Shown here: piece by piece, positions 2,172 through 64,000 of the stretch
Layout: each line of letters opens with the position of its first letter
How positions within the stretch are numbered: position 1 is the stretch's first letter
From: Frankiales bacterium
Lineage (GTDB): Bacteria > Actinomycetota > Actinomycetes > Mycobacteriales > SCTD01
Assembly (NCBI GenBank): GCA_025465465.1
Contig: JAODND010000034.1
Location: 8,099-72,098 of the forward strand
DNA length: 64,000 nt
Direction of reading: 5' to 3'
Made by a program: the position numbers and the translations under genes
The notes under the pieces: generated by a model
Databases searched by the model: none
Told to the model about the DNA's origin: nothing
Seen by the model: the letters and a program-made list of their open reading frames with translations, nothing else

Positions 2172-2190
2172 ATGTGGGAGCGTGCCAGGC

Positions 2191-3051: not shown

Positions 3052-3449
3052 CCTGGGAGCTGTCCCAGCTCGTCCACCGCTACGCCGCGTCGATCGACGA
3101 CCGCCGCTCGGTCGTACCGCTGTTCACCCCGGACGGGGTGCTCGTCACACCCGACCCCCCGACGGTGCTCGACCCGGTCCACGAGCACGTCGGCCCCGAG
3201 GCGATCGCCGCCGCCACCAGCGGGCTGCCCCGCACCTTCCACGCGATCGTGGGGGAGGTGTACGACGGTGAGCGCGGCCGGATCGCCTGCGTCGCGCACC
3301 ACGTCATCGACAACAAGACGGACCTGGTCTGGCACCTGAGGTACCTCGACGACTACCGCCAGGTCGACGGGGTGTGGCTGATCGCGCGGCGCCGGCTGTC
3401 GATCGACCTCATCGAGACGCGGCCCCTGAAGCGCGCCAGAACACCGTGA
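3048..3449 (+). CDS. SnoaL-like (NTF2-fold) domain protein
   Basis: 133-aa ORF. The ATG overlaps the LLM stop (ATGA). MTWELSQLVHRYAASIDDRR...VWHLRYLDDYRQVDGVWLIARRRL is typical of the SnoaL_4 fold. Confidence 0.6.
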   Translation: MTWELSQLVHRYAASIDDRRSVVPLFTPDGVLVTPDPPTVLDPVHEHVGPEAIAAATSGLPRTFHAIVGEVYDGERGRIACVAHHVIDNKTDLVWHLRYLDDYRQVDGVWLIARRRLSIDLIETRPLKRARTP

Positions 3450-3462
3450 CAGACCACCTGAG

Positions 3463-3551
3463 CGGAGGGTGTGGGATTTGAACCCACGAGACGGGATCAA
3501 CCGTCTGGCCGCTTTCAAGGCGGCTGCACTCGTCCACTATGCGAACCCTCC
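3463..3551 (-). tRNA. tRNA-Ser (anticodon UGA)
   Basis: The reverse complement reads GGAGGGTTCGCATAGTGGACGAGTGCAGCCGCCTTGAAAGCGGCCAGACGGTTGATCCCGTCTCGTGGGTTCAAATCCCACACCCTCCG. It has a 7-bp acceptor stem, anticodon stem GCCGC/GCGGC with loop CTTGAAA, a long variable arm and a GGTTCAAATCC T-loop. Confidence 0.9.
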
Positions 3552-3636
3552 CGGGTGCGGCCCAGCCTAATCGGGGGCCGCCGGTCGGATCCCGCAGCGG
3601 AACGGTTGATTCCGACGACAACCCAGCACTCACCTC

Positions 3637-5616
3637 GTGAACGCACACGAGATGGGGCTTTCCATGCGGGCTCGAGCAACAGGCTTCTTCGTGCTGGCAC
3701 TGGTGGCGTCGGGGTGCACGTCCACGCCGCACCCGACGACGCACGGCGGACGGCCAGCACCACTGGCCAGAGCCGTCGCGACCGGCCTCCAGCAGTTCGG
3801 CGACTGCGCGCAGCTGACCCGCGCGATCCGCGGCGAGGCCCTCAAGGAGGTCACCGCCTATGGCCTCCAAGCGCCTCAGCTGATGTATGGCCGCGGGTCC
3901 GGTGTGATGGGCGTGGACGACCGGAGCACCTTGGCCAGCACCGGGATGGCGGCTGCCGGCGGGCTGCCCATGCCCGCGCCCGAGAAGGCGGCCCAGGCCG
4001 CGGCGCCGGCAGCGGGGCCGGGCTTCTCGGGCACCAACAACCAGGAAGCCGGCGTCGACGAGCCCGACCTGGTCAAGACCAACGGCACCGTCATGCTGGT
4101 GCTGCGCCAGCAGGCCGCGGTCCTGCAGCTCATCGACGTGCATGGCGCGCACCCGGCGCTGCTCTCGAAGCTGCCCGTCGCCCTCCACAGCGAGCTGTCG
4201 ATGCTGCTGTCCGGGACGACGGTGGTGGTCCTCGGCCAGCGCTACGAGGGCAACAGCAACGTGACGACGGCTGAGGTCTACGACATCGCCGACCCGACGG
4301 CACCCGTGCACCTGCGCACGTTCCGGATCAAGGGGCAGCTGCTCGACGCGCGCTTCGTGCACGGCCGGGTCGTCCTGGCGACGCAGACCGTCCCCTCCCT
4401 GCGCTTCGTCTACCCCGGCGGCCCCACGACGCAGGCCGGCGCACTCGCCGCCAACCGGATGGTCATCTCGCGCGCCGACGCAAGCAGCTGGCTGCCCGCC
4501 GTCGTCGTGACGCCGCACCGCCGGACCTACCAGGCCCAGTGCGACGCCGCCTACCACCCGGCAGCCGCCTCCGGCACGGGCACGACCTCGATCGTCACGC
4601 TCGACCCGCAGGCTGACGCCCCGACCCAGAACCTCACCGTCGTCGGTGGCAGCAACGTGCTCTACGCGAGTGAGTCCACGCTCTACCTCGCGACCTCGTC
4701 GTGGCGCGACCAGCTCACCCTGGTGCGCGGCCGCGGGGCCGGCGTCACCACCGCACTGCACGGGTTCGACCTGACCGACCCGGACCACCTGCGGTTCCTC
4801 GGCTCCGGCTCCGTCCCCGGGAGCCTCACCGACCAGTACTCGCTGTCGGACCAGCACGGCTACCTGCGCGTCGCCACGACGATCGGCGACCCGCAGCCAC
4901 CCACGGGCGAAGGCATCCAGCCGGCGAAGGGGCAGCTGTCCGACAACCGCATCACGGTGCTCCACCCGACCGGGGGGCAGCTGGCGCAGGTGGGCGTCCT
5001 CACCGGCCTCGGCCGCGGGCAGCGCATCTACGGTGTCCGCTTCCTCGGAGACGTCGGCTACGTCGTCACGTTCCGCACCATCGACCCGCTCTACGCCATC
5101 GACCTCTCTGACCCCCGGCACCCGGCCGTGAAGGGTGCCCTCCACGTCAGCGGCTACTCGTCGACGCTGTTTCCGCTGGCGGACGGGCAGCTGCTCGGGA
5201 TCGGCCAGGCCGTCGGCGCCCGCCAGCAGCAGCTGGGTGCCCAGGCCGAGGTGTTCGACGTCTCGCAGCTCGCCCACCCGAGGCTCACCGGCAAGCTGGT
5301 CTACCCCCAGGCCGCGAGCTCCGCCGAGAACGACCACCACGCACTGCTGTGGTGGGGGCCGGCGCACCTCGTCGTGATGCCGCTGCAGACCTGGACCAAC
5401 GGCTCGTCGCAGGCACTCGTGCTCAAGGTCGAGACCGGGGGCACGCTCAAGGAGCTCGGCCGCATCTCTGCGCCGCACTCGGCAGGGACCTACGGAAGTG
5501 CGCAGATCACCAGGTCCGTCGTGGTCGGGAACCTGCTCTACTCGGTGACGGACGGCGGTCTCGTCGTCAACCCGCTCGACGAGGTGGACCGGCAGACGTG
5601 GCTTCCCTTCGCCTGA
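3637..5616 (+). CDS. secreted lipoprotein with beta-propeller domain (Beta_propel-like)
   Basis: The signal peptide carries a lipobox (FFVLALVASGC). The C-terminal half carries GYVVTFRTIDPLYAIDLSDPRHPAVKGALHVSGYSSTLFPL, characteristic of the beta-propeller-domain secreted protein family. Confidence 0.75.
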   Translation: MNAHEMGLSMRARATGFFVLALVASGCTSTPHPTTHGGRPAPLARAVATGLQQFGDCAQLTRAIRGEALKEVTAYGLQAPQLMYGRGSGVMGVDDRSTLASTGMAAAGGLPMPAPEKAAQAAAPAAGPGFSGTNNQEAGVDEPDLVKTNGTVMLVLRQQAAVLQLIDVHGAHPALLSKLPVALHSELSMLLSGTTVVVLGQRYEGNSNVTTAEVYDIADPTAPVHLRTFRIKGQLLDARFVHGRVVLATQTVPSLRFVYPGGPTTQAGALAANRMVISRADASSWLPAVVVTPHRRTYQAQCDAAYHPAAASGTGTTSIVTLDPQADAPTQNLTVVGGSNVLYASESTLYLATSSWRDQLTLVRGRGAGVTTALHGFDLTDPDHLRFLGSGSVPGSLTDQYSLSDQHGYLRVATTIGDPQPPTGEGIQPAKGQLSDNRITVLHPTGGQLAQVGVLTGLGRGQRIYGVRFLGDVGYVVTFRTIDPLYAIDLSDPRHPAVKGALHVSGYSSTLFPLADGQLLGIGQAVGARQQQLGAQAEVFDVSQLAHPRLTGKLVYPQAASSAENDHHALLWWGPAHLVVMPLQTWTNGSSQALVLKVETGGTLKELGRISAPHSAGTYGSAQITRSVVVGNLLYSVTDGGLVVNPLDEVDRQTWLPFA

Positions 5617-6173
5617 CCCACGCGGCTCGCGATGATGCTCGCAACGATGACAGTGCGCTGCTACGAGCCGCCGCACAGGGGCAGCCCGACGCCGTGCGGT
5701 GGCTGCTCGACGAGGTGGCTCCCATCGTGCACGGGTTCGTGTGGGCCCGCGTGGGTGGCGACCGGCTGGTCACCGAGGACCTGCTGCAGGAAACCCTGCT
5801 CGAAGCGGTCGCCTCAGCCGGCAGCTTCCGTGGCGACTCGGCTGTGTCGACCTGGATGTGCGGGATCGCCCGGCACCGCATCGCGAGGCACTGGGAACGC
5901 GAGCGCCGCGACGAGGTGCTGCAGTCGCGACTGCGCGCGGTCAGCGACGATGTCGAGGACCGGGAGGAGGCCCTGCTCCGGCGGGAGGAGGTCGCGGCAG
6001 CCCTCGGGCGGTTGCCGGCGATGCACCGTCAGGTGCTCGTCCTGAAGTACCTCGACGGCTTGGCCGTTCAGGAGATCGCCGGCCAGATCGGCCGCACCCG
6101 GGTGCAGGTGCAGTCCCTGCTGCAGCGCGCCCGGGACGGACTGCGCACCGAGCTGGGGGATGACCATGGCTGA
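5598..6173 (+). CDS. ECF-type RNA polymerase sigma-70 family factor
   Basis: Region 2 (VHGFVWARVGGDRLVTEDLLQETLLEAV...STWMCGIARHRIARHWERERR) and region 4 HTH (VLVLKYLDGLAVQEIAGQIGRTRVQVQSLLQRARDGL). The first in-frame canonical start near the domain is GTG 5598, which overlaps the end of the upstream gene. The start is uncertain. Confidence 0.8.
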   Translation: MASLRLTHAARDDARNDDSALLRAAAQGQPDAVRWLLDEVAPIVHGFVWARVGGDRLVTEDLLQETLLEAVASAGSFRGDSAVSTWMCGIARHRIARHWERERRDEVLQSRLRAVSDDVEDREEALLRREEVAAALGRLPAMHRQVLVLKYLDGLAVQEIAGQIGRTRVQVQSLLQRARDGLRTELGDDHG

Positions 6174-49305: not shown

Positions 49306-51273
49306 CTACTTCTTCGCGGGTGCCTTCTTGGCCGGCGCCTTCTTCGCTGCGGGAGCGGCCTTGCGCGCCTTGGGGGCGCTCGACGGCACCGATGCCGGCT
49401 TGACCTCGCCCGCCTGCTTGGCCGCCTCCTCCTCGACGAGCACCCGCCGCAGCACCTTGCCGACCGTGTTGCGCGGCAGCTCGGTCCGGAACTCCACCAG
49501 CTTCGGGACCTTGTACGCCGTCAGGCTGGCCGAGCAGTGCGCGACCACGTCGTCCTCGGTGAGCTTGGCGCCGGGGGCCTTCACGACGAACGCCTTGACG
49601 GTCTCGCCGCGGTACTTGTCCGGGACACCGATGACGACAGCGTCCTGCACGCCCGCGAGCGCGAACAGCACCTCCTCCACCTCGGACGGGTAGATGTTGA
49701 AGCCGCCCGCGATGATGAGCTCCTTCTTGCGGTCGACGACGAAGAAGTAGCCGTCCTCATCCATCACCGCGACATCGCCTGTGAGCACATAGCCGTCGCG
49801 GGTGAAGACGCCGGTCTGGTCCGTACGACCCCAGTAGCCCGAGAACACCTGCGGGCCGGCGATCGCGAGCTCGCCCGGCTGGCCGACCGGGACCTCCTTG
49901 GACGGGTCGTCCTGGTCGACGATCTTCACCGACGTGCCGGGGAGCGGCAGTCCGATGGAGCCGGGCTTGCCCAGGCCGTCGGTCGGGTTGGCGTGCGTCG
50001 AAGGCGAGGTCTCGGTCATGCCGTAGCCCTCGATGAGGGTCGCGCCGGAGACGCGGCTGAAGTGCTCGGCGATCTCGACCGGCAGCTTCATGGCACCGGA
50101 GACGCAGAGCCGGATGCTCTTCAGGTCGGTGGTGCGCGCCTTCGGGTGGTCCGCGATCGCCTTGTACATAGGGGGAACCGCCGGAAACAGCGTCGGCTTC
50201 CACTCCGCGATCGTGCTGAAGACGAGGTCGAGGTCCCACTTGGGAATCAGCACCAGGGTGCCGCCCAGCAGGATCGTGTTGGTCATCGCGACGGTGAGGC
50301 CGTAGGCGTGGAACAGCGGGATCGCGGCCAGGGTGATCTCCGTGCCGCCCTTCGCCTCGATGTCCCAGAGCCGGTTCATGTAGGCGTTGCTCACCAGGTT
50401 GCCGTGGCTGAGCATCGCCCCCTTCGCCAGGCCGGTGGTTCCGCCGGTGTACTGCAACAGGGCGAGGTCGGAGGACTCGACCGGCTCCTGGCGGGTGACG
50501 GGCGTGGCCGACTTCATGATGGCCGTGAAGTCCTTCACCGCGGCGCCTCGCGGCAGGACTGCCGACAGCTCGGCGCGCGTCCGCTTCGCCTTCTTCAGCG
50601 GCAGCCGCAGCTGGAGCTGCTTGGTGCGCGGCAGCCAGTCCGTGAGGGAGGTCGTCACGATGGTCTCGACGGCCGTGTCCTTCTGCACCTTCGCGACCCT
50701 GTCGTAGACCCGGTCGAGGCAGACCACGACCTTGGCACCGCAGTCCGCGAGCTGGTGGGCGAGCTCGGGCTCGGTGTAGAGCGGGTTGTGCTCGACGACG
50801 ACGGCACCGAGGCGCATCGCGGCGAACAGCGCGATCACGTTCTGCGGGCAGTTCGGCAGCACGAGCGCGACCCGGTCGCCCTTGGTCACGCCGAGCGCCT
50901 GCAGGGCGCCGGCGAAGCGGTCGACGTGGTCCTTGAGCTGCTTGTACGACGTCTTCGCACCGAGGAACGCCAGCGCGACGTGCGTGGGGTAGGAGGTGGC
51001 AGCGTCATCGAGCAACCGGGTCAGCGGGGTCGTCGGGAACAGGTAGGTGGTCGGCACGCCCTTCGGGTAGTGCGCGATCCACGGCTGGTCGCCGTACCTG
51101 GTCGCGGCCTTCTTGGCGGGAGCCTTCTTGGCCGGCGCCTTCGCGGCCGGCGCCTTCGCGGCGGGAGCCTTCTTGACCGGGGCCTTCTTGACCGGGGCCT
51201 TCTTGACCGGCGCCTTCTTGGCGGGAGCCTTCGCGGCGGGGGTCTTCTTGGTGGACGGGCTGGGGCCGGGCAC
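49306..51273 (-). CDS. long-chain fatty-acid--CoA ligase (AMP-binding) with Lys/Ala/Pro repeat tails at both termini
   Basis: AMP-binding core ([21 protein letters not shown]; GYGMTETS; GDV...[16 protein letters not shown]). The N-terminus is (KKAPx/AKAPA)n and the C-terminus is [18 protein letters not shown]. Start is GTG 51273 or ATG 51324. Confidence 0.85.
49309..49371 (-). repeat. C-terminal PAKKA-type coding repeat
   Basis: The last 21 codons read [21 protein letters not shown]. Confidence 0.85.
51113..51255 (-). repeat. 15-nt tandem coding repeat encoding (K/A)KAP(A/V) x ~9
   Basis: DNA: gccttcttggcggga/gccttcttggccggc/gccttcgcggccggc/... Protein: [48 protein letters not shown]. Confidence 0.9.
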
Positions 51274-51387
51274 GACAACGCCTCTCCGTGCACGAGGTGT
51301 GCACGTGCTACTGGACAACCGCACGACCCGGTTGCTGGTCCGGACAAGTGTGGCAGATCAGTGCTGTGGTGTGCGCCGCCGTCCGGT

Positions 51388-53705: not shown

Positions 53706-54600
53706 GCTGGGCGGTCCTGGCCGCGACCATCGCTGCAATGACCAGTGCGACCACGACGCCGCCGGCCGCCTGGTAGCCACTGCGCTGCAAGCTGTCGGGC
53801 TTGCTGTTCGGCGCAGTGACGATCACCCACGACAGGGCTGCCCCCGTGACGAGGCCGCCCACGTGGCCGCGCCAGTCGATGCCGGACAGCGAGAAGCTGA
53901 GGAACAGGTTCAGCGCGATGGTGGTCGTGATCGAGGTGACGTCGAGGTTGCGCTTGCGGCCGAAGACATACCACGCGCCGAACAGCCCGAAGACCGCGCC
54001 GGACGCGCCGGCGGCCAGCTCGTACTGCGGGCCGAAGGCGTACGACAGGGCGGCGCCGCCGAGTCCCGACAGGAGGTAGGTCGCCGCGAAGCGCAGCTGG
54101 CCGAACGCCTGCTCCAGCGCGGGGCCCAACATGTAGAGGGCCACCATGTTCAGGGCGAGGTGGATGATCCCGAAGTGCAGGAAGGTCGAGGTCAGCAGCC
54201 GGTAGTACTGACCGTCCGCGACCCCGTGCTGCACGACCTGGGCGCCGTTGGCGTCGGTGTAGGAGTAGCCGTGCGGGACGAGGGCCAGCTTGCGGAAGAC
54301 CGCGTTGTTGACGTCCCCGTTCAGGATGCCTGAGCCGCTCGTCGTGGCCACCAGCATGATCACGTTGATCGCGATCAGCGTGTAGGTCACATACGGGACG
54401 CTGCGCGCCCGCCCCCCGTACGCCGCCTTGACGGAACGCAGGGTCTTGCCGCCCGCCTTGACGCAGTCCGGGCACTGGAAGCCGACCGAGGCCTCCCGCA
54501 TGCACTCAGGGCAGATCGGGTTGCCGCATCGCGTGCAGCTGACGTAGGTCTCCCGATCCGGGTGGCGGTAGCAGACCGGGGCTGCCTGCTGCTCGCTCAG
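53698..54600 (-). CDS. rhomboid family intramembrane serine protease with N-terminal zinc ribbon
   Basis: [25 protein letters not shown]...FQCPDCV (Zn ribbon). [19 protein letters not shown] (GxSG catalytic Ser). GHVGGLVTG (His). There is no ATG/GTG/TTG just upstream of the ribbon. The only nearby candidate is CTG at 54600, overlapping the ppiA stop. Confidence 0.85.
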
Positions 54601-55139
54601 CTGTCGACCTGCTCGATCGTGATGCTGTCGATGACAACCTCGTCCCTGGGACGGTCCATGGCACCGACGGGCGTCTTGGCGATCGCGTCGACGACGTCGC
54701 GGCCGGCCTGGTCCGCGACCTCGCCAAAGATCGTGTGCTTGGTGTTGAGCCACGGCGTGGCGGCCACGGTCACGAAGAACTGCGAGCCGTTGGTGCCGGG
54801 ACCGGCGTTGGCCATCGCCAGCAGGTAGGGCTTGGAGAACTGCAGCTCCGGGTGGATCTCGTCGTTGAAGCGGTAGCCGGGGCCACCGGTGCCGGTGCCG
54901 AGCGGGTCGCCGCCCTGGATCATGAAGCCGTCGATGACCCGGTGGAACGCCGTGCCGGCGTAGAGCGAGCCCTCGCCCTTCGCGCCGGTGCGCGGGTCGG
55001 TCCACTCCCCGGTGCCGTCGGCCAGGCCCACGAAGTTCTTCACCGTCTTCGGGGCGTGGTCCGGGAACAGCCGCACACGGATGTCACCGCGGTTGGTGGA
55101 GAGGGTGGCAAACAGCTCGGTGGCCACAAGGGCTCCCAT
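54597..55139 (-). CDS. ppiA: peptidyl-prolyl cis-trans isomerase (cyclophilin type)
   Basis: [15 protein letters not shown]...[15 protein letters not shown]...HTIFGEV. Confidence 0.95.
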
Positions 55140-55166
55140 CGGTGTCGGGGTCAGACCCGGATCACT

Positions 55167-56840
55167 CTAGGAGGGTTCCGAACCGCGGGGCGTCGGGGTG
55201 ACGACGTCCGCGTCGTCGCTGCCCGCCGGCCTGCCCAGGCGCTGGCTCACGGCCCGCCGCAGCAGCGCGTCGACCTGAGCCTCCGGTGGCACTCCCTCGC
55301 TGACCGACGTGCGGTCTCGACCGGCGTGCTTGGAGCGGTAGAGCGCCTCGTCCGCGGCGCGCACCAGGGTGTCGGCGTCTCCTGCGTGCGACGGGTAGGT
55401 CGCGACGCCGGCGGACGCGGTGATCGGGACGATCGAGGGGGCGGCACCGACGGCGCGGCGCAGCCGTTCGGCGATGTCCAGCGCCTCGTCCGGGCCGCAG
55501 CCGGGCAGGATGACGGCGAACTCCTCACCGCCGTAGCGGGCTGGGGTGTCGAAGTCACGGCACTCGCAGGACAGCGAGGCCGCGACGTTGCGCAGCACTT
55601 CGTCACCTGCCTGGTGCCCGTGGGTGTCGTTCAGCCCCTTGAAGTGGTCGATGTCGACCATCACGAGGCTGACGTGCTCGGCGCTGCGGGTCGCACGGGC
55701 GACCTCCCGCTCCAGGGTGGCCTCAAAGGTGCGGCGGTTGGCGATCTTGGTGAGGCCGTCGGTCGCGGCAAGGCGTTGCACCTGCTCGAGCAGCCAGGCG
55801 TTGCGCAGGGCGAGCGCGGCATAGGAGGCGGAGCGCTCGAGGCCGGTGACGACGCGGCGCTGGATGCGGTGGCCGCCGGTGTGCTCGACGACGAGGGCAC
55901 CGAGCGAACGGCCCTCGGCCGACAGTGGGACGACCACGAGGTTGGCGGCGCCCGGGAGCAGCCGGGCCAGCCACGGGTCAGCCTCGGTGTCGAGACCGCG
56001 GACGAGCACCGTGGCCTTCGACTCGTGCGCCTGACCGACGACCAGCGACGGGCCCGGCCGTCCGGGACGGCGGGCCACGTCCTCGTCGAGGCCATAGGAC
56101 GCGAGCACCGGCAGGTGGCCTTCGGAGCTCGCCAGGACGACACCGCGCGGGAAGCCGTAGGTGGTGACGGCGGCGTCGAGCAGGGTCCGGGCGACCGAGC
56201 TCGAGTCGTCCGTGCGCTCGATCTGCTCTGCGAGGCTGGTCAAGGCCTCGAGGTCACCGCGGCGCCGGCGCAGCTCGCGTTCGTTGATCGCGGACAGCGT
56301 GCTGGTGGAGAACGCGACCAGCCACAGCACGACGATGAAGATGGCCAGCCTGTGGTCGGCCGAGCCGTAGCCGGTGAGGTTGGCGGGGGACGTGTCGCTC
56401 AGCACATGGCCCGCGACCATGTTGCGGATCGTGAAGAGCAGCAGCGAGTGCCAGACGGCCAGCTTGATGCCGGTGCGGTAGGACGCCAGCAGGCAGACGG
56501 CTCCGAGGTGCAGCAGCATCGCGTAGCGCAGCGGGCTGGTGGTGCTGCCGGTGAGCCAGCTGGCGCCGGCGAGCCATACCCCGTCGACCATCAGCATGCC
56601 GCTGAACAGCAGCAGCGTCCGGCGAGGCAGCGTACGCGCGAGCACCTCTGCGATCCCGGTGAGGCAGAGGAAGCCGAGCGTCCACGGCACGAGGTCGTGC
56701 CGGTCGGGCAGCAGCGTGTCCGGCGCGAGCAGCTTGCACAGCAGCACCAGACCCACGGCACCGAGCCGCAGCCACTGGGTGATCCGGAAGCGCTCGGTGA
56801 CCGGAACGGCATCGCCGGGCAGGGTCGCGACACGGGTCAT
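55167..56840 (-). CDS. membrane-bound GAF-GGDEF diguanylate cyclase
   Basis: About 6 N-terminal TM segments, a GAF-like middle, and DGLTKIANRR...VMVDIDHFKGLNDTHGHQAGD...RDFDTPARYGGEEFAV. The A-site is GGEEF, with an RxxD I-site 5 residues upstream. The ATG overlaps the stop of the giant upstream gene (ATGA). Confidence 0.9.
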   Translation of the reverse strand: MTRVATLPGDAVPVTERFRITQWLRLGAVGLVLLCKLLAPDTLLPDRHDLVPWTLGFLCLTGIAEVLARTLPRRTLLLFSGMLMVDGVWLAGASWLTGSTTSPLRYAMLLHLGAVCLLASYRTGIKLAVWHSLLLFTIRNMVAGHVLSDTSPANLTGYGSADHRLAIFIVVLWLVAFSTSTLSAINERELRRRRGDLEALTSLAEQIERTDDSSSVARTLLDAAVTTYGFPRGVVLASSEGHLPVLASYGLDEDVARRPGRPGPSLVVGQAHESKATVLVRGLDTEADPWLARLLPGAANLVVVPLSAEGRSLGALVVEHTGGHRIQRRVVTGLERSASYAALALRNAWLLEQVQRLAATDGLTKIANRRTFEATLEREVARATRSAEHVSLVMVDIDHFKGLNDTHGHQAGDEVLRNVAASLSCECRDFDTPARYGGEEFAVILPGCGPDEALDIAERLRRAVGAAPSIVPITASAGVATYPSHAGDADTLVRAADEALYRSKHAGRDRTSVSEGVPPEAQVDALLRRAVSQRLGRPAGSDDADVVTPTPRGSEPS

Positions 56841-59800
56841 GCCGGGGCACCTCCTCCCAGGTGGAGGACCGGACCGAAGTCGAGCTCCGGCTCCGCTCCG
56901 ACGGGCGCCGACGCGAGCTTGGGGTCACGTCGGTCGATGCGGTTCTGCAGCAGGAGGAAGCCAATCACGACGCCGAGCACGACGAGGGGGATCGTGGGTT
57001 TCCGTGCCACCTGAGCCAGCGTGTTGCCGATCGCCTGCGGCACCTCCTTGGTGATGAGAGCGCCGGGGGTGGGCACGGTGAGCATCCGGTCGACAGCCCG
57101 CTTCACCGGTCCGCTCGTTCCCTGATGCGCGGGTACGAGGCCGGAGCCCGCGGGAGGCTGGGTCGGGTGGACGGGCGGCGGTGTGCTGACTCCCGGCAGG
57201 CCGGTCGATGGCGTACCCGGCTTTCCGACGTGGTGCACCACCGTCGGGGGGGTGACCGACGACGCGCGGTAGTCGTAGGGGGTGCTGCGGGTGAAGGGCC
57301 CCTCGTCGCCCCGGGTGTTGATCAGCTGGACCGTCAGGAAGTACAGCCCGTGCGGCTGGGACGACAGGTCGGCCGTGAAGCGGCCGGACGAGCAGGATGC
57401 CTGCGCGAGCACGGCCTCGCCCGCGTTGGAGAGCAGACAGGCTGCCGTGTAGGACGGGGGCACCGTGAAGGTCCAGGTGGGACGGGTGCCCGGACCGGAC
57501 GCCGGCGTCCTGAGATCGGTGACGGCGGGGACGGGCGAGACGAACGTGTAGCGCGACGAGACGGGCGTCGCCCGGTTCCCCGCGGGATCCACGGCCCAGA
57601 CCCACAGCAGCCACGTCCCTGTCTGGGTGAGCAGTTCCGTGTGCGGGGAGCGGCAGCTCTTCGACGCAGCATCCGACGGAGCCACGCCCCCCTTAGTGAG
57701 CTGGCAGCGGAAGCTGGTGCCTGCGGCACTGAGCGGTCCGCTCGTCAGCGAACCGGAGCGCAGCGCGGTGCTGGGCTCGCCGAAGGTCCAGGTCACCCGG
57801 GGAGTCGTCCCCACATCGGCGGCGAGCGGGCGGATCTGTGCCGGAGCTGGCGGGATGCTGTCGAAGAAGTACGACGCCATCGCGGTCCCACTGACGTTGC
57901 CGGCGGCGTCCTGGCCCTGCACCGAGAGGGACACCGCGCCCTGCGAGCGGGGCGCCATCCCCACCAGCGCGACGGTGTTGCTGCCCAGTGCGCAGGGGGA
58001 CGCGGTGGCCGGCTTGCCGTCGAAGCGGGTGACGGAGCAGGTCAGGCCCACGATGTCCTTGCTGCCTGCGCCCTCGGCGATGCGAAACACCGGGCTGGTG
58101 GAGTTGCCCGGCGACTTCAGCGGCGGGCTGACCTCCGGGGGGACAGGGGCGTTGCTGTCCAGCAGGTACGGCGGCGCGGACACCGGAGCCGACACGTTGC
58201 CGGCCGGGTCGGTCTCACGAGCCTGCAGGGTGTAGGAGCCGGAGGTCGCCGGCGCGAGGTCGTAGGTCACCGGGGCAGCGCAGGGCGCCCAGCTCGAACC
58301 GGGCAGTCCCACGAGCCGGCACTCGAGCAGGTCGCCCGGCTCGCTCACTTCGACACCCCACACCGGCGTGACGACCGGACCGGGTGAACCCGGGGTCTTC
58401 GTGATGAGCGGCGCGCCGGGGGCGGTGCGGTCGACGATGTAGTCGGCGGTCACGAGCGGACCGAGGTTGCCCGCGGCGTCCTGCGCGCGAACCGTGAGTG
58501 AGTACGTGCCGTCGGGCTGCTGGCCGAGGTCGGTGACGAGCGGCGAGCTGCAGGGCTGCTCAGCGGTGACGGCACCGGAGATCGACAGCAGCTGGCACAG
58601 CGCCGTGCTGCCGCCCTCGACGGCGAAGGACCACGTCACACTCCCGGCGTTGCTCGGTGACGGGGTGAGGGCCCGCAGCCCCGTCGGCGCGGCCGGCGCG
58701 AGAGTGTCGAGCACATAGGCACTCGAGACGCTCGGGCCGAGGTTGCCGGACGCGTCGCGGGCGCGGACGATCAGCACATAGGTCCCGTCGTTCGCGGACG
58801 TGAGGTCGGCGGTGAAGCTGCCCTGCCCGTTGGCCGACCCCGGGCACGTGGCAAACGCCGGCGGCGAGGCGGGGTCGGTCTGGAAGGCACACTCGAGCGT
58901 GCTGTCGGTGTCACCGATGAGGGTCCAGGTCACGACCCGCGCCGCTGCCGGTGTCCGCGGTGCCGTGACGACGACGGCGCTGGGCGCGGTCGTGTCGAGG
59001 ACGTATGCGGTCGACGTCGCGGAGGTCTTGTTGCCGGCGGCGTCCGACACCTGGACGGTCAGCGTGTAGCTGCCGTCCGTCAGCCCGGTGAGGTCGACGC
59101 CGAAGGGCGCTCCGGAGGGCGGCGCGGAGCAGCTGACCGGCGCGGCGACGGCGCCACCGGGTCCGTTGAGGGTGCACACGGCCGTCACACCCGGCTCGTC
59201 GTCGCTGACCGTCCACGTCGGCTGGAGGCCCTTCGACGGCGACGCGGGCGTGAGCATCGTCGCCGCCACCGGCGCCGCGCGGTCGAGCACATAGCTGCTG
59301 GTGGCGACGGCCGACAGGTTGCCCGCTGCGTCCACGGTCCGCGCGGTGAGGGTGTAAGTGCCGTCGGGTCCTGTCAGCGACGTGCTGAAGCCCGATGTGC
59401 AGTCGGTCCAGTCGACGAGGACGGTGCCGCCGAAGGTCAGCTGGCACTGCACCGTGCCCTCCGCGGTGCTGACCCCCCAGGCGGGCGCAGTGCTCTGGCT
59501 CGGGGAGCTGGGCGGTGTCAGCGTCGGCGTCGCCGGGGCGGTGGTGTCGAGCACATAGGTCTCCGACAGCGCCGGCCCGGTGTTGCCGGCGGCGTCCGTT
59601 GCCGTGACCGTGAACGTGTAGGTGTCATCCGTGCTGAGCGTCGGCGCGAAGGGGCTCGTGCACGGCGCCGACACCACCTGTCCGGTGCTGGCACCGGTGA
59701 CGGTGCAGGTGGTCGTGGTGCCGGCCTCCGCCGTGAAGCCCCAGCTCGGCGAGGTGGACGGCGACGGCGAGGCGGGCGTGCTCGTCGCCACCGGTGCGGC

Positions 59801-62800
59801 TGGGGCCGTCCGGTCGAGCACATAGCTGGCGGACCCGGTGCCGCCGGGGTTGCCTGCCACGTCCGTCGCGTCGACGGCGAGGGTGTACGCACCGTCCGCG
59901 CGGCCGGCGAGGTCGACCGTCACCGGGCTGGTGCAGGGGGCCGTAGCCGACACGACCGTCGCACCGCTCGTGACCGTGCACCGCGTGCTGCTCCCGGCTT
60001 CGCTGGTGAAGCCGAACACCGGACCGGTCGTCTGACTCGGACTTGTGGGGGCCGTCACGACGGGTGCCGCGGGCCCGGTGGTGTCGAGGGTGTACGTCGC
60101 CGAGACCACCGCGCTGGTCAGGCCCACCTCGTCGACGGCGCGCACCGTCAGCGTGTAGGTGCCGTCGGGCTGGTTGCGAAGGTCGGTCGTCCAGGGGAAC
60201 GTGCAGGCGGCCCAGTCGGCGACCACCCGGGCACCGGACGACGTCGCGCACTCAGCGGTGTCGCCCGCCGTGAACGTCGCCGACCACACCGGCATCGTGT
60301 CCCTGCCGGGACTCGCGGGCGCCGTGAGCACCGGCGCACCGGGCGGGGTCGTGTCGAGGACATAGGGGCCCGCCACACCGGCGCCGCTCTGGTTGCCCGC
60401 GGAGTCGGTGAGCTTCACCGAGACGTCCCAGGAGCCGTCGCCGACGAGGGTCGGCTGCCACGGCGTACTGCACGAGACAGCTGCCGCGGCGACCCCGTCG
60501 TGAACCAGGACGCAGCTGCCGCTGGTCCCGACCTCACCTGTCCAGCTGACCGTCGGCGAGGTGCCTGTCGACGGGCCGGTCGGCATGGCGACGACCGGGG
60601 CCGCGGGAGCAGTGGTGTCGAGCCGGTAGGCGAGCGACGTGCCGACGGCGCCGGTGTTGCCGGCCGCATCGATGGCCCGCACGTCGAGCTCGTAGTCGGC
60701 GTCCGGCATCGCACTCACGTCGGCGGTGTAGGGAGTGGTGCAGGAGGACCAGTCGTTCACCACCGTGGTGCCCTGCCGCCAGCGGCACTGCGTCGCAGCA
60801 CCCGGCTCGGCGGAGAACGGGAAGGCCGGTGCGCGCACCGCCGACGGGCTGCTGGGGGTGGTCACCGTCGGTGCCGCGGGCGCGGTCGTGTCCAGCTGGT
60901 AGGGCGCGGACTGCGCCGCCGGACTGACGTTGCCGGCCGCGTCCTGCACGGTCACCTGCAGGACGTAGCTGCCGTCGGAGGACAGCGGCACGGCGGTGCC
61001 GCTCGTGCAGGGTGCGGGTGCGCCGGGCACGCCGTCGCGGATGAGCACGCAGTTCGAGGCCGCGCCCGCCTCGGCGGTCCAGCTCCAGGTCGCGGTGGTC
61101 GTCTGCGCCGTCCCGGTCGGGCCCGACACGACCGGGGCAGCGGGTGCTGACGTGTCCAGCAGATAGGCGCTCGTGGTCGTCGCGGGGCTCACGTTGCCGG
61201 CCGCGTCGGTCAGCTGCACGACCACGACGTAGCTCGCGTCACCGGTGAGCGCCGGGCTGAAGGAGCCGCTGTTGCAGGGCACCTCGCTGCCCACCACGCC
61301 GGCCCGGTCGAGCCGGCAGCTCGCGGTCACGCCGGCCTCTCCGGTCCACGTCCACGTCGGGGCAGTCGTGTTGCCAGGACCTGCCGGACCGGCAACGGCC
61401 GGGGCGGCCGGGGCGGTGCGATCGGAGGTGTACGGCGCGCTGCTCGCGATCTGGGCGTCGTTGCCGGCGAGGTCGGTCACGAGGACGTCCACGGTGTAGG
61501 TGCCGTCGGAGGGGCTCGCGACCGTGTAGCGACCCGAGCTGCAGTCGCTCCAGGCACTGATGGCGATCCCCTGGACGAGGCGGCACTGCGCGGTGGTCCC
61601 GGCCTGGACCGGGAACGTCCAGGACGGCGCCAGGGCGTTGCCCGCTCCGGTCGGACCGCTGACGGTCGGGACGGTCGGCGCCGTGGTGTCGAGGGTGTAG
61701 GGCCAGGTCGTGACGGCCGCGTTCTGGGCGGTGTCGTGCGCCGTCACCTGCAACGTGTAGTCGCCGTCCGCGAGGCCGGTGAGGTCCGCTGTGTAGCTCG
61801 TCGTGCAGGGCGACACCCCGCCGGCGGTGCCCCCGCTGGGCGGGTTGCCGACGAGCAGCTGGCAGGTGATCGTGTCGCTGGCGTCGCCGACCAGCGACCA
61901 CGTCGGCGTGCGGTTGTTGCTCGGCCCGGTGGGCCCGGAGATGACGACCGCCGTCGGCGCTGTCGTGTCGAGCACATAGCCGAACGTCGTCGGTGCCGAC
62001 GTGTTGCCGGCGGCATCGGAGAGCCGGACCGCCAGCGTCCAGGTGCCGTCGCTCGCGAGGGCTGGTGTGTAGGACCCGCTGGTGCAGTCGGTCCAGGTCG
62101 GGGAGGTCGGCGCGCTCGTGCCGCTGTAGACGGTGCAGGTCGCGGTCCCGCCCGGGGTCTCGGGCGTGAACGTCACGGTCGGCGTCGTGTCGTTGCCGGG
62201 GCTCGACGGGGTGGTGAGGGCGGGCGGGGCGGGCGCCGTCCCGTCGTACAGGTAGGGGGTCGAGGTCGTGCCGACCACGCCGACGTTGCCGAGCGGATCG
62301 GTGAGCTGCGCCTGGAACACATAGCTGCCGTCACCCGGCAGCGTCGGGTAGAAGTCCCGTGCGCTGCAGTCCACCCAGGTGCCGTCCGTGACGACGCTGC
62401 CCACTGTGCGCTGCCACCGGCAGACCGCGGTGCTCGGGAGCTCGCCCATCCAGGTGACGTGTGGGGTCGCGGAGTTGGCCAGCCCCGTCGGACCCGAGAC
62501 GTCGGGCGCGTCCGGACCGGTCGTGTCGAGCAGGTAGGCCGCGCTGGTGGTGGCGACCGTGTTGCCATGGCCGTCGTCTTCGGTAACGACGAGCTGCCAG
62601 CTGTCGTCACCCGGCAACGTGAAGGTCGCCGGGGAGGAGCAGGGGGCGGTCGAGACCGTGCCGTGGGTGCTGCCGACGAGGGCGCACATCGTCGAGGCAC
62701 CCGGCTCGGTGAAGGTCCACGTCACCGAGGTCGACGTGCTCGGGCTGGTCGGCGGCGTCCCGAAGACCGCTGCCGCCGACGGCGTCGTGTCCAGGGTGTA

Positions 62801-63694
62801 GCTCGGTCCGACCGCGGCGGTGCTGCGGTTGTGGGCGGCGTCCTCCAGGACCACCGACAGGCTGTAGTCGCCCTCGGTGGCCGCACTCGCGGTGTAGGAG
62901 GTGTGGCTGCTGCAGGCGACTTCCGCGCCGGCACCGGCGGGCGACGTCAGGGTGCACAGGGCGGCGACGTCCTCCGGGTTGGCCCAGGTCCAGGTCGGCG
63001 AGGTGTCGTTGCCGATCCCGTTGGCGCCGGTGACCGTCGGCGCCGCCGGGGCGACCGTGTCGAGGACGTAGCTCGTGGTCGAGACGGGCGAGGTGTTGCC
63101 GGCCGGGTCGGTCGCGGTGACGGCGAGGTCGTGGCTGCCTTCGGTGAGGTCGGCTGAGGGCGTGAAGCCGGTGGTGCAGGAGACGTCCGGTCCGGCATCC
63201 AATGAGCAGGTTGCGGCCCCTGACGGGTCGACCGAGATGCCCCACGTCGGCCGGGGATCGTTGCCCGGCGAGGTCGGCGGGGTCACCGTGAGGCCGGCGA
63301 CGGTGTCCAGGGTGTAGGCCACCGTGGCGGGCGTCCCGTCGTCGGACAGCGACTTCTCCCGGACCGACAGCGTGTAGTCGCCGTCTGGGCCGAGGGCCGG
63401 TACTGCCCAGGGGCTGCTGCAGTCGGCGTAGGCGGGAGTCGGGTCGGAGGCCGGCGCGGCGGCGCACTCGTACTGCAGGCCGGCACCGGTGAACGTCACG
63501 AGCGGGCTGGGGTCGTTCGAGGTGACGGTCGCGGCCGGGCTCGAGATGTCCGGTGGGGGCGCGAGCGCGTGGGCTGGGGTGGCGAGCGCGACGACGCCGG
63601 TGGCCGCGACGCCGGAGCAGAGCAGCAGAGCAGCAGCGCTGCGCACCACACGCAGCTGCGGGGTGCGGAGCAGGCGTGCTGGCGCCATGCCCAT
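56837..63694 (-). CDS. giant (~2285 aa) type-I membrane-anchored surface protein built of 23 tandem Ig-like repeats
   Basis: ATG 63694 is preceded by AAGGAG at 5-nt spacing. Signal peptide ...AAALLLCSGVAATGVVALATPAHA. Repeats have the form Y(V/T)LDTTAPAAP...P.W.(F/W)...C.(L/V)...C(T/S)SP...DG.YTL.V.A.DAAGN. Near the C-terminus there is a TM segment (IPLVVLGVVIGFLLL) followed by a ~38-aa tail. Confidence 0.85.
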   Translation of the reverse strand: MGMAPARLLRTPQLRVVRSAAALLLCSGVAATGVVALATPAHALAPPPDISSPAATVTSNDPSPLVTFTGAGLQYECAAAPASDPTPAYADCSSPWAVPALGPDGDYTLSVREKSLSDDGTPATVAYTLDTVAGLTVTPPTSPGNDPRPTWGISVDPSGAATCSLDAGPDVSCTTGFTPSADLTEGSHDLAVTATDPAGNTSPVSTTSYVLDTVAPAAPTVTGANGIGNDTSPTWTWANPEDVAALCTLTSPAGAGAEVACSSHTSYTASAATEGDYSLSVVLEDAAHNRSTAAVGPSYTLDTTPSAAAVFGTPPTSPSTSTSVTWTFTEPGASTMCALVGSTHGTVSTAPCSSPATFTLPGDDSWQLVVTEDDGHGNTVATTSAAYLLDTTGPDAPDVSGPTGLANSATPHVTWMGELPSTAVCRWQRTVGSVVTDGTWVDCSARDFYPTLPGDGSYVFQAQLTDPLGNVGVVGTTSTPYLYDGTAPAPPALTTPSSPGNDTTPTVTFTPETPGGTATCTVYSGTSAPTSPTWTDCTSGSYTPALASDGTWTLAVRLSDAAGNTSAPTTFGYVLDTTAPTAVVISGPTGPSNNRTPTWSLVGDASDTITCQLLVGNPPSGGTAGGVSPCTTSYTADLTGLADGDYTLQVTAHDTAQNAAVTTWPYTLDTTAPTVPTVSGPTGAGNALAPSWTFPVQAGTTAQCRLVQGIAISAWSDCSSGRYTVASPSDGTYTVDVLVTDLAGNDAQIASSAPYTSDRTAPAAPAVAGPAGPGNTTAPTWTWTGEAGVTASCRLDRAGVVGSEVPCNSGSFSPALTGDASYVVVVQLTDAAGNVSPATTTSAYLLDTSAPAAPVVSGPTGTAQTTTATWSWTAEAGAASNCVLIRDGVPGAPAPCTSGTAVPLSSDGSYVLQVTVQDAAGNVSPAAQSAPYQLDTTAPAAPTVTTPSSPSAVRAPAFPFSAEPGAATQCRWRQGTTVVNDWSSCTTPYTADVSAMPDADYELDVRAIDAAGNTGAVGTSLAYRLDTTAPAAPVVAMPTGPSTGTSPTVSWTGEVGTSGSCVLVHDGVAAAAVSCSTPWQPTLVGDGSWDVSVKLTDSAGNQSGAGVAGPYVLDTTPPGAPVLTAPASPGRDTMPVWSATFTAGDTAECATSSGARVVADWAACTFPWTTDLRNQPDGTYTLTVRAVDEVGLTSAVVSATYTLDTTGPAAPVVTAPTSPSQTTGPVFGFTSEAGSSTRCTVTSGATVVSATAPCTSPVTVDLAGRADGAYTLAVDATDVAGNPGGTGSASYVLDRTAPAAPVATSTPASPSPSTSPSWGFTAEAGTTTTCTVTGASTGQVVSAPCTSPFAPTLSTDDTYTFTVTATDAAGNTGPALSETYVLDTTAPATPTLTPPSSPSQSTAPAWGVSTAEGTVQCQLTFGGTVLVDWTDCTSGFSTSLTGPDGTYTLTARTVDAAGNLSAVATSSYVLDRAAPVAATMLTPASPSKGLQPTWTVSDDEPGVTAVCTLNGPGGAVAAPVSCSAPPSGAPFGVDLTGLTDGSYTLTVQVSDAAGNKTSATSTAYVLDTTAPSAVVVTAPRTPAAARVVTWTLIGDTDSTLECAFQTDPASPPAFATCPGSANGQGSFTADLTSANDGTYVLIVRARDASGNLGPSVSSAYVLDTLAPAAPTGLRALTPSPSNAGSVTWSFAVEGGSTALCQLLSISGAVTAEQPCSSPLVTDLGQQPDGTYSLTVRAQDAAGNLGPLVTADYIVDRTAPGAPLITKTPGSPGPVVTPVWGVEVSEPGDLLECRLVGLPGSSWAPCAAPVTYDLAPATSGSYTLQARETDPAGNVSAPVSAPPYLLDSNAPVPPEVSPPLKSPGNSTSPVFRIAEGAGSKDIVGLTCSVTRFDGKPATASPCALGSNTVALVGMAPRSQGAVSLSVQGQDAAGNVSGTAMASYFFDSIPPAPAQIRPLAADVGTTPRVTWTFGEPSTALRSGSLTSGPLSAAGTSFRCQLTKGGVAPSDAASKSCRSPHTELLTQTGTWLLWVWAVDPAGNRATPVSSRYTFVSPVPAVTDLRTPASGPGTRPTWTFTVPPSYTAACLLSNAGEAVLAQASCSSGRFTADLSSQPHGLYFLTVQLINTRGDEGPFTRSTPYDYRASSVTPPTVVHHVGKPGTPSTGLPGVSTPPPVHPTQPPAGSGLVPAHQGTSGPVKRAVDRMLTVPTPGALITKEVPQAIGNTLAQVARKPTIPLVVLGVVIGFLLLQNRIDRRDPKLASAPVGAEPELDFGPVLHLGGGAPA
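57260..63565 (-). repeat. 23 tandem ~91-aa coding repeats (Ig-like, DTTAP...DAAGN type, two conserved Cys each)
   Basis: Counted from the translated ORF by the recurring (Y/F)x(L/V)D(T/R/S) boundary. The repeats have diverged at DNA level, so this is not a recent amplification. Confidence 0.8.
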
Positions 63695-63711
63695 TCGTGC
63701 TCCTTGCGTCG

Positions 63712-63745
63712 CCCAAGTCGCAGCAGGGTGCTTGGGTCCCTGCTG
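63712..63745 (-). other. interleaved helix pair (pseudoknot-like) in the 5' leader of the giant gene
   Basis: The mRNA sense reads CAGCAGGG-a-CCCAAG-ca-CCCTGCTG-cga-CTTGGG. An 8-bp and a 6-bp perfect complement are interleaved, ending 6 nt before the AAGGAG SD. Confidence 0.45.
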
Positions 63746-63902
63746 CGGCAGGACGTGCCGTCGCACGCCCTGAGGACTGCTTCGGCAGGGTCACCCGAAA
63801 AGGTGAGGGCTGATCGGCGGGAAATTCACTGCGCCGATCGTGCTGCCCGCAAGGCCGGATATGGTCCGAATGGACGCACCCGCCCCGTTGCCGGTCCTTC
63901 GG

Positions 63903-63974
63903 TGGAGCCACGGGGATTCGAACCCCGGACCTTCGCCTTGCAAAGGCGCTGCTCTACCACTGAGCTATGGCCCC
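63903..63974 (-). tRNA. tRNA-Ala (anticodon UGC)
   Basis: The reverse complement is GGGGCCATAGCTCAGTGGTAGAGCAGCGCCTTTGCAAGGCGAAGGTCCGGGGTTCGAATCCCCGTGGCTCCA. It has the G3:U70 identity pair, anticodon loop CTTTGCAAG and T-loop GGTTCGAATCC. Confidence 0.93.
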
Positions 63975-64000
63975 CGGTCGCTCAGCGCAGATCCACGTCT

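Follow-up and report, generated by a model that had tools for sequence, protein, structure and literature searches.

What does a giant repeat protein of the cell surface have to do with an enzyme that makes cyclic di-GMP (c-di-GMP)? The question is raised by two overlapping genes on the reverse strand of a 64,000-nucleotide (nt) stretch of contig JAODND010000034.1 from a Frankiales bacterium (assembly GCA_025465465.1), called the window below. The first gene (56837..63694 (-), stop codon included) encodes a 2285-residue protein with 23 immunoglobulin (Ig)-like repeats, here termed the partner. The second gene (55167..56840 (-), stop codon included) encodes a 557-residue diguanylate cyclase with a six-transmembrane (6TM) domain, a GAF domain and a GGDEF domain, according to Pfam, NCBIfam and an AlphaFold2 (AF2) model. 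As a preliminary description of the locus had noted, the partner TGA overlaps the cyclase ATG in an ATGA at 56837..56840 (-), read from the open reading frame (ORF) list and the translations. The analysis reported here found the pair in many uncultured Actinomycetota, with a nearly constant membrane anchor and cytoplasmic tail at the end of the partner. Together with a natural fusion and the lack of an extracellular domain in the cyclase, this near-invariance strongly suggests that the two proteins are directly linked through this helix and tail.

The linkage of partner and cyclase was followed in both directions. A genome scan with the transmembrane and GAF region at the cyclase N-terminus recovered 37 loci, all of them in metagenome-assembled genomes (MAGs). 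Wherever upstream DNA sufficed, a large ORF with Cys-pair Ig repeats was found directly before the cyclase (1700-3270 residues if complete). Of the 33 loci with enough upstream DNA, 30 had the tail motif of the partner 97-185 nt ahead of the cyclase match, with a variant of the motif in L034. In the opposite direction, a protein search with the tail profile returned short contig-end fragments only, and DNA scans of genomes and metagenomes were used instead. Scanned with nothing but the tail profile, the metagenomes yielded 80 loci, 72 of which had at least about 350 nt downstream; these were searched by tblastn with the window cyclase. A full-length cyclase homologue adjoined the tail in 70 of the 72 evaluable loci. 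It was co-directional and 0-100 nt away in 68 of the 72, where it began at query residue ~1-13, the 6TM domain included, and was 35-84% identical. One locus (L051) held a convergent, tail-to-tail pair (2146-3873 and 3955-5517), the sole such arrangement seen, and in another (L123) the anchor and tail were fused in frame to 6TM-GAF-GGDEF. The fusion is a 607-residue protein (P0228/P0356) from an Acidimicrobiales MAG, with 606 of 607 residues identical between separate assemblies. Its topology is consistent, the cytoplasmic tail joining the cytoplasmic N-terminus of the six-helix domain. Moreover, in 84 of 99 pairs the open cyclase frame reached back far enough for an NTGA overlap with the partner stop (ATGA 56, GTGA 24, TTGA 4), which is no product of chance because a third-position A is rare in DNA of ~70% G+C. 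The earlier proposal that the pair is made together through translational coupling is thus borne out by the overlap being possible in most pairs. The synteny survey that had been called for finds the partner-cyclase pair recurring in Actinomycetota MAGs and metagenomes. Co-conservation, the lack of which had been named as a ground for giving up the link, holds in both search directions and across genomic contexts.

The contexts themselves differ. The pair was found in at least five unrelated genomic neighbourhoods, the oriC-proximal site of the window included, where it is set within a conserved gyrA-DUF3566-tRNA / ppiA-rhomboid-crgA site. Elsewhere it lies beside MreB/serS/nuo (L043), beside MurB/Laminin_G in a Rugosimonospora MAG (L044, cyclase 41% identical over the full length), beside DUF3263-otsB-groEL (L125, L127) and beside a sigma factor and a ceramidase (L126). 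The partners of L125-L127 carry the motif and the NTGA overlap in all three cases. The closest relatives are uncultured 'Frankiales' MAGs at 98-99% identity, and all members found belong to uncultured Actinomycetota, as genomes or metagenomes. No cultured host was present among ~240 listed homologues and 20 cluster look-ups, all of which were metagenomic or MAG-derived, with Frankiales, Mycobacteriales, Acidimicrobiales and the one Rugosimonospora MAG as sources.

Which part of the partner is kept beside the cyclase? The protein consists, in order, of a signal peptide, 23 Ig-like repeats, a stalk, a transmembrane helix and a tail. In aligned partner C-termini, stalk and ectodomain drifted and the last ~50 residues were nearly fixed, with the signature P-L-x-L-x3-V-x2-F-L-x2-Q-N-RIDRRDPKLA-x-AP, or in the fuller alignment pattern ...KPT-[IL]-P-L-x-L-L-x-V-V-x-x-F-L-L-x-Q-N-R-I-D-R-R-D-P-K-L-A-x-A-P-V-x-A-E-P-E-L-x-F-G-P. 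The pattern is kept even in an 'Acidimicrobiales' MAG with an only 49% identical cyclase. Among 101 distinct sequences, the column counts were P 91, V 83, F 98, L 88, Q 99, L 100, A 94 and A 98. In the window, the single transmembrane helix (residues ~2234-2251, 56942..56995 (-)) was placed by hydropathy and holds the conserved P, V, F-L and Q positions. The cytoplasmic tail (residues 2252-2285, RIDRRDPKLASAPVGAEPELDFGP...., 56840..56941 (-)) is the near-invariant module signature; it begins at R2252 with RIDRRDPKLA and is 34 residues long. Before the helix stand the Pro-rich stalk and a juxtamembrane segment, VPxAI...KPT (together residues ~2151-2233, 56996..57244 (-), from the translation and the orthologue C-terminus alignment), the latter moderately conserved in that alignment. 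A Pro-rich stalk, one transmembrane helix and a 38-residue tail had been described before; stalk and helix stand, and the tail is counted here as 34 residues, a figure that depends on where the helix ends. Across sequences the tail measures 22-43 residues, with ~20 conserved residues outside the basic cluster, and no Pfam or NCBIfam model matches the isolated tail even at E = 10. The ectodomain repeats are 51-77% identical to those of L001, as against 86% for the cyclase of the same locus. These alignments show the anchor and tail of the partner to be far more strongly constrained than its ectodomain.

How far the ectodomain is free to vary became clear from the tail-based sample. Among its 43 complete partner ORFs, Cys-pair Ig repeats were found in 4 only (7, 11, 11 and 22 copies). 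The remaining 39 measure 85-755 residues and differ in content; two of them (L042, L043) are frameshifted fragments and one (L123) is the fusion. The non-Ig content includes a domain common to several partners and without Pfam match, low-complexity Thr- or Pro-rich segments, and a weak WxLIP peptidoglycan-binding-like match (E = 1.5e-5). Giant partners are under-counted in this sample because contig ends cut them, and 15 of the 21 incomplete ORFs of at least 300 residues have repeats. In total, partner ectodomains span from fewer than 200 residues up to ~32 Ig domains. The preliminary description had centred on the giant Ig array, which is not what is conserved in the partner. Because most complete partners lack the array, the comparison of sequences defines the system as a variable ectodomain, a constant anchor and tail, and a cyclase, and not specifically as an adhesin and a cyclase; an adhesin function of the partner could be proposed by analogy only. 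A ~150-residue domain without Pfam match was seen in several short partners (L067, L073, L095, L098, L101, L125, L127), with the pattern ...LF.L.DL.PG....C..L.Y.......L....G.GG.FG.C.GF.G...F.GTL..... and, as we presume, a resemblance to the TasA/camelysin-type beta-sandwich.

In the window, the ectodomain is the giant array. The partner gene starts at the ATG at 63694 within an open frame of 56837..63766 (-), and an AAGGAG ribosome-binding site (63700..63705 (-), read from the sequence) lies 5 nt before this ATG. A Sec-type signal peptide (residues 1-43, 63566..63694 (-)) was read from the sequence, with a hydrophobic segment at residues 20-38 by hydropathy and an AHA motif at residues 41-43 followed by L, where cleavage would take place. 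ORF, start codon and sequence therefore agree with the protein of about 2285 residues and its signal peptide as first described. The array of 23 tandem Big_13-type Ig-like domains (residues ~45-2150, 57245..63562 (-)) was defined by motif splitting, a hidden Markov model (HMM), Pfam and AF2. Repeats were delimited in two ways, by splitting at a Y-x-L-D-T motif and with an HMM built from the repeats themselves. Both delimitations gave 23 repeats of ~82-107 residues, each with exactly two Cys, in agreement with the preliminary count; a 47th Cys sits in the signal peptide. The Pfam check suggested for the repeats assigned them to Big_13 (E = 3e-85), and the NCBIfam model Ca_tandemer also matches. 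An AF2 model of repeats 8-9 (predicted local distance difference test score, pLDDT, 95.5) was all-beta. Its top Foldseek match was the SiiE BIg tandem 2yn3 (template-modelling score 0.72), and further matches were GhpA, the MpIBP adhesin and FN3 tandems. Family model and modelled fold, an Ig-like beta-sandwich in a head-to-tail array, are those of Big_13/BIg members. The model indicates an extended rod, which would be roughly 80 nm long for 23 domains if extended like SiiE. In the model, C34 and C48 stand on or beside the neighbouring strands 31-38 and 45-47, compatible with a putative disulfide.

The repeats share a mean amino-acid identity of 38% with each other, and Tandem Repeats Finder (TRF) detected no tandem repeat of ~270-nt period at the DNA level, which bears out the earlier remark that they have diverged as DNA. 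By HMM, exactly 23 repeats were counted in the window and in eight assemblies (L001, L006, L007, L010, L011, L033, L036, L040), and 26-32 in lineages more distant than the subclade of the window. The best repeat matches are collinear, 23/23 between the window and L001 and 20/23 against L010, which amounts to positional orthology. Partner orthologues in independent assemblies are 2288-2386 residues long. Because nine assemblies carry 23 orthologous repeats and a DNA-level repeat is lacking, the giant ORF is not an assembly artefact. Interruption of the ORF or collapse of the assembly had been raised as a concern; the ORF is intact with 23 repeats in nine independent assemblies. The positional orthology also means that the array is old, as had been proposed. 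Selection for its length, the second half of that proposal, is plausible, and a simple lack of recombination between diverged repeats fits too.

The cyclase was dissected in the same manner. Its six-helix membrane domain occupies residues ~1-190 (56271..56840 (-), AF2 model and hydropathy), the GAF domain residues 212-347 (55800..56207 (-); Pfam GAF_2, GAF and GAF_3) and the GGDEF domain residues 358-510 (55311..55769 (-); Pfam and TIGR00254). The GGDEF assignment is firm by both models (PF00990, E = 8.7e-45, 152.8 bits against a cut-off of 23.8; TIGR00254, 169.4 against 37.4). The GGEEF motif occupies residues 437-441 (nt 55518-55532), with the RDFD I-site (residues 428-431, nt 55548-55559) five residues upstream of it, the spacing seen in PleD. 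Across 53 family members, D361, N368, R369, D396, D398, K401, N404, D405 and R435-F441 are invariant; in the I-site, R428 does not vary either, and D431 is kept in at least 90%. From these residues, the GGDEF domain is apparently active and regulated through the I-site. The same members also conserve D86 and H111 within the membrane and the cytoplasmic-face stretches SYRTGxK and NERELRRRR. In the AF2 model of the cyclase (pLDDT 86.6), the helices span residues 14-43, 47-70, 72-96, 105-118, 121-143 and 161-208; helix 6 extends into the cytoplasm as a long helix that reaches the GAF domain, and a second long helix leads to GGDEF. Thus Pfam, motif positions and AF2 helices uphold the 6TM GAF-GGDEF enzyme with intact GGEEF and RxxD I-site that had been read from the sequence. 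Hydropathy and residue content gave outer loops of 5-22 residues and basic ends on both sides of the membrane domain. With six helices and such short outer loops, the cyclase is therefore without an extracellular sensing domain.

This layout of six helices, short loops, cytoplasmic N- and C-termini and a joined cytoplasmic signalling domain is, in the model, that of 6TM_PilS. The family model PF25323 matched five of eight relatives of 60-85% identity (best E 8.9e-6), with no reported match for the window protein, and it is precomputed for many cyclase homologues, that of L126 included. A relationship of the membrane domain to 6TM_PilS is thus indicated indirectly. The isolated 6TM domain gave nothing significant against Pfam and NCBIfam, and when the cyclase fold was compared with the PDB, GAF and GGDEF matches alone came back, none for the membrane domain. 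The family is broad: 157 representatives (50% clustering) were found with the transmembrane and GAF region at E <= 1e-30 and 447 at E <= 1e-10, and homologues in the first protein search were 68-99% identical. Six proteins (P0208, P0213, P0225, P0235, P0262, P0220; 756-1269 residues) share the 6TM-GAF N-terminus and carry a C-terminal EAL domain, P0225 with an additional PAS domain. These relatives may be bifunctional or phosphodiesterases, to judge from their domains.

We were particularly interested in how the two proteins might work together. On balance, and with only a little more confidence than doubt, we take them to form an obligate membrane complex in which the partner anchor and tail dock on the PilS-like 6TM domain, with an outside-in flow of information favoured. 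The direct link through transmembrane helix and tail is suggested because the tail is near-invariant, a natural fusion exists and the cyclase has no extracellular domain. The outside-in direction is favoured because the cyclase cannot see the outside, the partner helix is conserved and PilS and PleC provide a precedent. According to a passage of PMC6058289 that cites Kilmury & Burrows 2016, the 6TM domain of PilS binds the membrane helix of the pilin PilA in P. aeruginosa. In Caulobacter, PleC senses the PilA helix, and c-di-GMP is raised (PMC7196804).

In the proposed mechanism, the partner would be a type-I membrane protein whose ectodomain is free to vary, here a 23-domain Ig-like rod, and whose constant end would comprise the juxtamembrane segment, the transmembrane helix with its P/V/F-L/Q positions and the motif RIDRRDPKLA-x-AP...E-L-x-F. 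The cyclase would expose to the membrane only its six-helix PilS-like bundle. Both proteins would come from one message by stop/start-coupled translation, and the anchor helix and tail of the partner would then dock on the cyclase, at the 6TM bundle and the face of it that looks into the cytoplasm (SYRTGxK, NERELRRRR). Changes in the ectodomain (load, ligand, contact, or loss or cleavage) would shift the seating of helix and tail on the 6TM domain, and helix 6 and then the GAF domain would relay this shift and so set how much c-di-GMP is made. The physical contact, the contact surface, the signalling direction and the sensed input are what we infer from the comparisons above. An outside-in relay had been suggested in the preliminary description; its link through the transmembrane helix and tail is strengthened.

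Several observations weigh against the proposed outside-in complex. The present data fit outside-in and inside-out signalling alike, and the GAF domain and I-site are cytoplasmic inputs of the cyclase's own. The tie of the membrane domain to 6TM_PilS comes from relatives of the window protein. The pattern used in the metagenome scan was RIDRRDPK, which makes these eight residues invariant there by construction, and the independent evidence for conservation lies in the flanking positions and in the genome-scan set, found via the cyclase. Three loci (L009, L012, L028) have a cyclase of 62-77% identity without an upstream tail motif; in L012 (~5500-5821) the tRNA-Ala comes immediately before the cyclase, as though this locus had lost its giant gene. 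Conversely, no cyclase homologue was found downstream of two tail proteins, within 10 kb for L090 (1006-2886) and within 1.1 kb for L116 (1-276); these may be orphan partners, or their cyclase may be encoded elsewhere. Finally, only one fused lineage occurs among the 484 proteins fetched.

The strongest competitor turns the direction around, and we regard it as appreciably less probable. Here the cyclase would be the input, through GAF and I-site, and the partner tail would be a local c-di-GMP receptor or effector that alters the ectodomain in its display, conformation, clustering or proteolytic release, functionally resembling LapD/LapG-LapA by a different mechanism. Linkage, coupling and fusion fit this direction equally well. 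The cyclase possesses a cytoplasmic GAF sensor, the varied ectodomains could be cargoes that share a single control, and the tail is Arg-rich, with an R-x-x-x-R spacing in RIDRR. Such a spacing is known from PilZ-type c-di-GMP binding. However, a tail of 22-43 residues is very small for a nucleotide receptor and matches no known c-di-GMP-binding family in Pfam or NCBIfam. Moreover, an inside-out system leaves unexplained why the partner transmembrane helix is conserved and why the cyclase keeps a six-helix bundle with D86 and H111 where a simple anchor would do.

It is unlikely that the conserved C-terminus is instead a sorting or localisation signal, recognised by a sortase-, rhombosortase- or exosortase-like system, by the nearby rhomboid or by a site-2 protease, with the cyclase merely co-localised or co-regulated. 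The tripartite layout of motif, transmembrane helix and basic cluster is that of C-terminal sorting domains, rhomboid and sortase genes lie in the same cluster of the window, and release of the tail by cleavage could also be one signalling step. A sortase-anchored wall protein was rejected, however: LPXTG/LAXTG is absent before the transmembrane helix, where the sequence reads ...LAQVARKPTIPL..., and the 34-residue tail has ~20 more conserved residues past the basic cluster. Nor is a sorting domain of the PEP-CTERM, GlyGly-CTERM or PGF-CTERM type in evidence, with no NCBIfam sorting model matching at E = 10, a single copy of the anchor and tail in the 64-kb window and not more than one in any fetched locus. 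The constant neighbour is the cyclase, whereas the rhomboid and sortase genes are absent from the other contexts and are part of a general actinobacterial cluster.

That the genes have no functional link and are neighbours by descent, or that the giant ORF arose by repeat mis-assembly, is very improbable: within the Frankiales-like clade the pair always occupies the same conserved site, where inheritance could suffice, and some long-read assemblies (L004, L013, L042, L043) hold frameshifted partner copies, but at least five unrelated neighbourhoods hold the pair, with cyclases as little as ~35% identical, there are a natural fusion and a conserved NTGA overlap, and nine assemblies show 23 repeats with 1:1 orthology and no collapsible DNA-level repeat.

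The proposed outside-in complex was then set beside known systems. Each of its parts is familiar from elsewhere, be it the BIg array, the GAF-GGDEF cyclase or the PilS-like 6TM domain. For their combination in a partner-cyclase pair, there is neither a family model nor a description in the literature searched, in line with the earlier remark that no such pair was known from Actinobacteria. The nearest analogy is to PilS-PilA and PleC-PilA, where, as in the proposed module, a near-loopless multi-helix sensor reads the membrane helix of a mostly extracellular single-pass protein; the output of PleC-PilA is c-di-GMP, as for the window cyclase. Unlike PilS and PleC, which are histidine kinases, the window protein has a GAF-GGDEF cyclase fused directly to the 6TM domain. 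The pilin is anchored N-terminally, whereas the window partner is anchored C-terminally (type I) and has a conserved cytoplasmic tail. Furthermore, the pair belongs to a monoderm actinobacterium and has no pilus genes in its vicinity.

The likeness to LapA/LapD, raised at the outset, did not withstand the comparison. LapA, SiiE, MpIBP and BapA do have very long tandem BIg arrays like the window partner, and in LapA/LapD, as presumably in the window pair, a giant surface protein is functionally linked with c-di-GMP. However, LapA-type proteins use type I secretion (T1SS/RTX) export and an N-terminal retention plug, whereas the partner has a Sec signal peptide and a C-terminal transmembrane anchor. 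No RTX or T1SS family appeared in the Pfam or NCBIfam output for the partner, and no LapG-like protease was found among the window neighbour genes scanned. LapD is a degenerate GGDEF-EAL receptor with a periplasmic domain; the window enzyme is an apparently active cyclase without EAL, its GGDEF looks catalytically intact, and the NCBIfam LapD model gave it 59.6 bits against a cut-off of 1020. A LapA/LapD-type mechanism was rejected on these grounds, namely Sec export with a transmembrane anchor, no RTX/T1SS and no LapD-type receptor. The giant BIg adhesins also owe their rigidity to Ca2+, where the window repeats would putatively rely on two Cys per domain instead.

In YfiN-YfiR-YfiB, SadC with MotC/PilO, SiaD-SiaC and GcbC-LapD, a dedicated partner encoded nearby sets the activity or targeting of a cyclase, as proposed here, and in the PDB fold search the window GGDEF is close to WspR, PleD, SadC and SiaD. 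Unlike the partners in the YfiN, SadC, SiaD and GcbC systems, the window partner is bitopic: its anchor and tail are invariant, whereas its ectodomain can be exchanged. Stop and start codons overlap to couple it to the cyclase, a fusion was found once, and its tail motif is in none of the four systems. Among actinobacterial enzymes, Streptomyces CdgE is a conserved GAF-GGDEF cyclase whose input is unknown (PMC6205966). It is soluble, 382 residues long and without a six-helix domain (PMC7911125), and was rejected as a counterpart for its solubility and size; CdgE shares GAF-GGDEF with the window cyclase, and no partner gene is described for it. The best solved matches to the cytoplasmic half (GAF, helical linker, GGDEF) are GAF-GGDEF enzymes of the DcsbIS/PA2771 type and phytochrome-linked cyclases (4zmu, 5llw). 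These are soluble, and the 6TM domain and the partner tail have no solved counterpart.

The surroundings of the pair are the conserved origin-proximal cluster of actinobacteria, in the order tRNA-Ala, pair, ppiA, rhomboid, bPH protein, crgA (in relatives), DUF881, sortase, AMP-ligase, pabA, pknB and pbpA. Upstream in the window lies a tRNA-Ala(TGC) (63901..63974 (-), ARAGORN), with the same neighbourhood in relatives. The cyclophilin gene ppiA (54597..55139 (-), Pfam Pro_isomerase) begins 27 nt downstream of the cyclase and is possibly co-transcribed with the pair; it stands outside the module, being absent beside the pair in other contexts. A promoter/terminator scan found no promoter-like sites in 54400-64000 and one terminator-like hairpin within the partner gene (62324-62342 (-)), which is at chance level (a single hairpin where 1.2 are expected). 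Inside the conserved crgA-pknB cluster, the window encodes a 672-residue AMP-binding (acyl-CoA ligase-like) enzyme (49306-51324 (-)) with a Pro/Lys-rich N-terminus and weak Extensin/HC2 matches, a gene also present in L001, L003 and L004. In L004 (1-1092, running beyond the locus end), GyrA is 1310 residues long with LAGLIDADG_3 between two topoisomerase segments, a domain order that suggests a gyrA intein. Large Laminin_G_3 proteins adjoin the pair in two different contexts (L044 1803-3962, L125 690-6599) and may be further module-associated envelope proteins. In L043, a second c-di-GMP gene, GGDEF-GAF-HD/HD_5 (3253-4836), lies 2 kb upstream of the pair.

A wider and more tentative extension of the outside-in complex is that the anchor and tail are a portable docking tag that would feed the state of almost any extracellular beta-sandwich, from ~100 residues to 32 domains, into a PilS-like 6TM cyclase. 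Monoderm Actinomycetota would then possess a family of modular outside-in receptors. In the lineage of the window, a fixed rod of 23 disulfide-stiffened domains, reaching through the wall and past it, would act as a contact or tension probe and thereby set c-di-GMP. How c-di-GMP cyclases of Gram-positive bacteria and actinobacteria get outside signals is largely unknown, and most annotated membrane cyclases have sensor domains without known input. The ~50-residue anchor and tail signature predicts a cyclase partner and could become a family model for genome annotation. The interchangeable ectodomains point to what is sensed, and the natural fusion fixes the topology. Membership in uncultured organisms only limits direct experiments, and the interaction is testable in a heterologous host. 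For the abundant uncultured Actinomycetota of soil, the module gives a function-linked handle on giant Ig-repeat proteins, and the PilS/PleC idea of a sensor that reads the membrane helix of a surface protein would be extended to another output and a different envelope.

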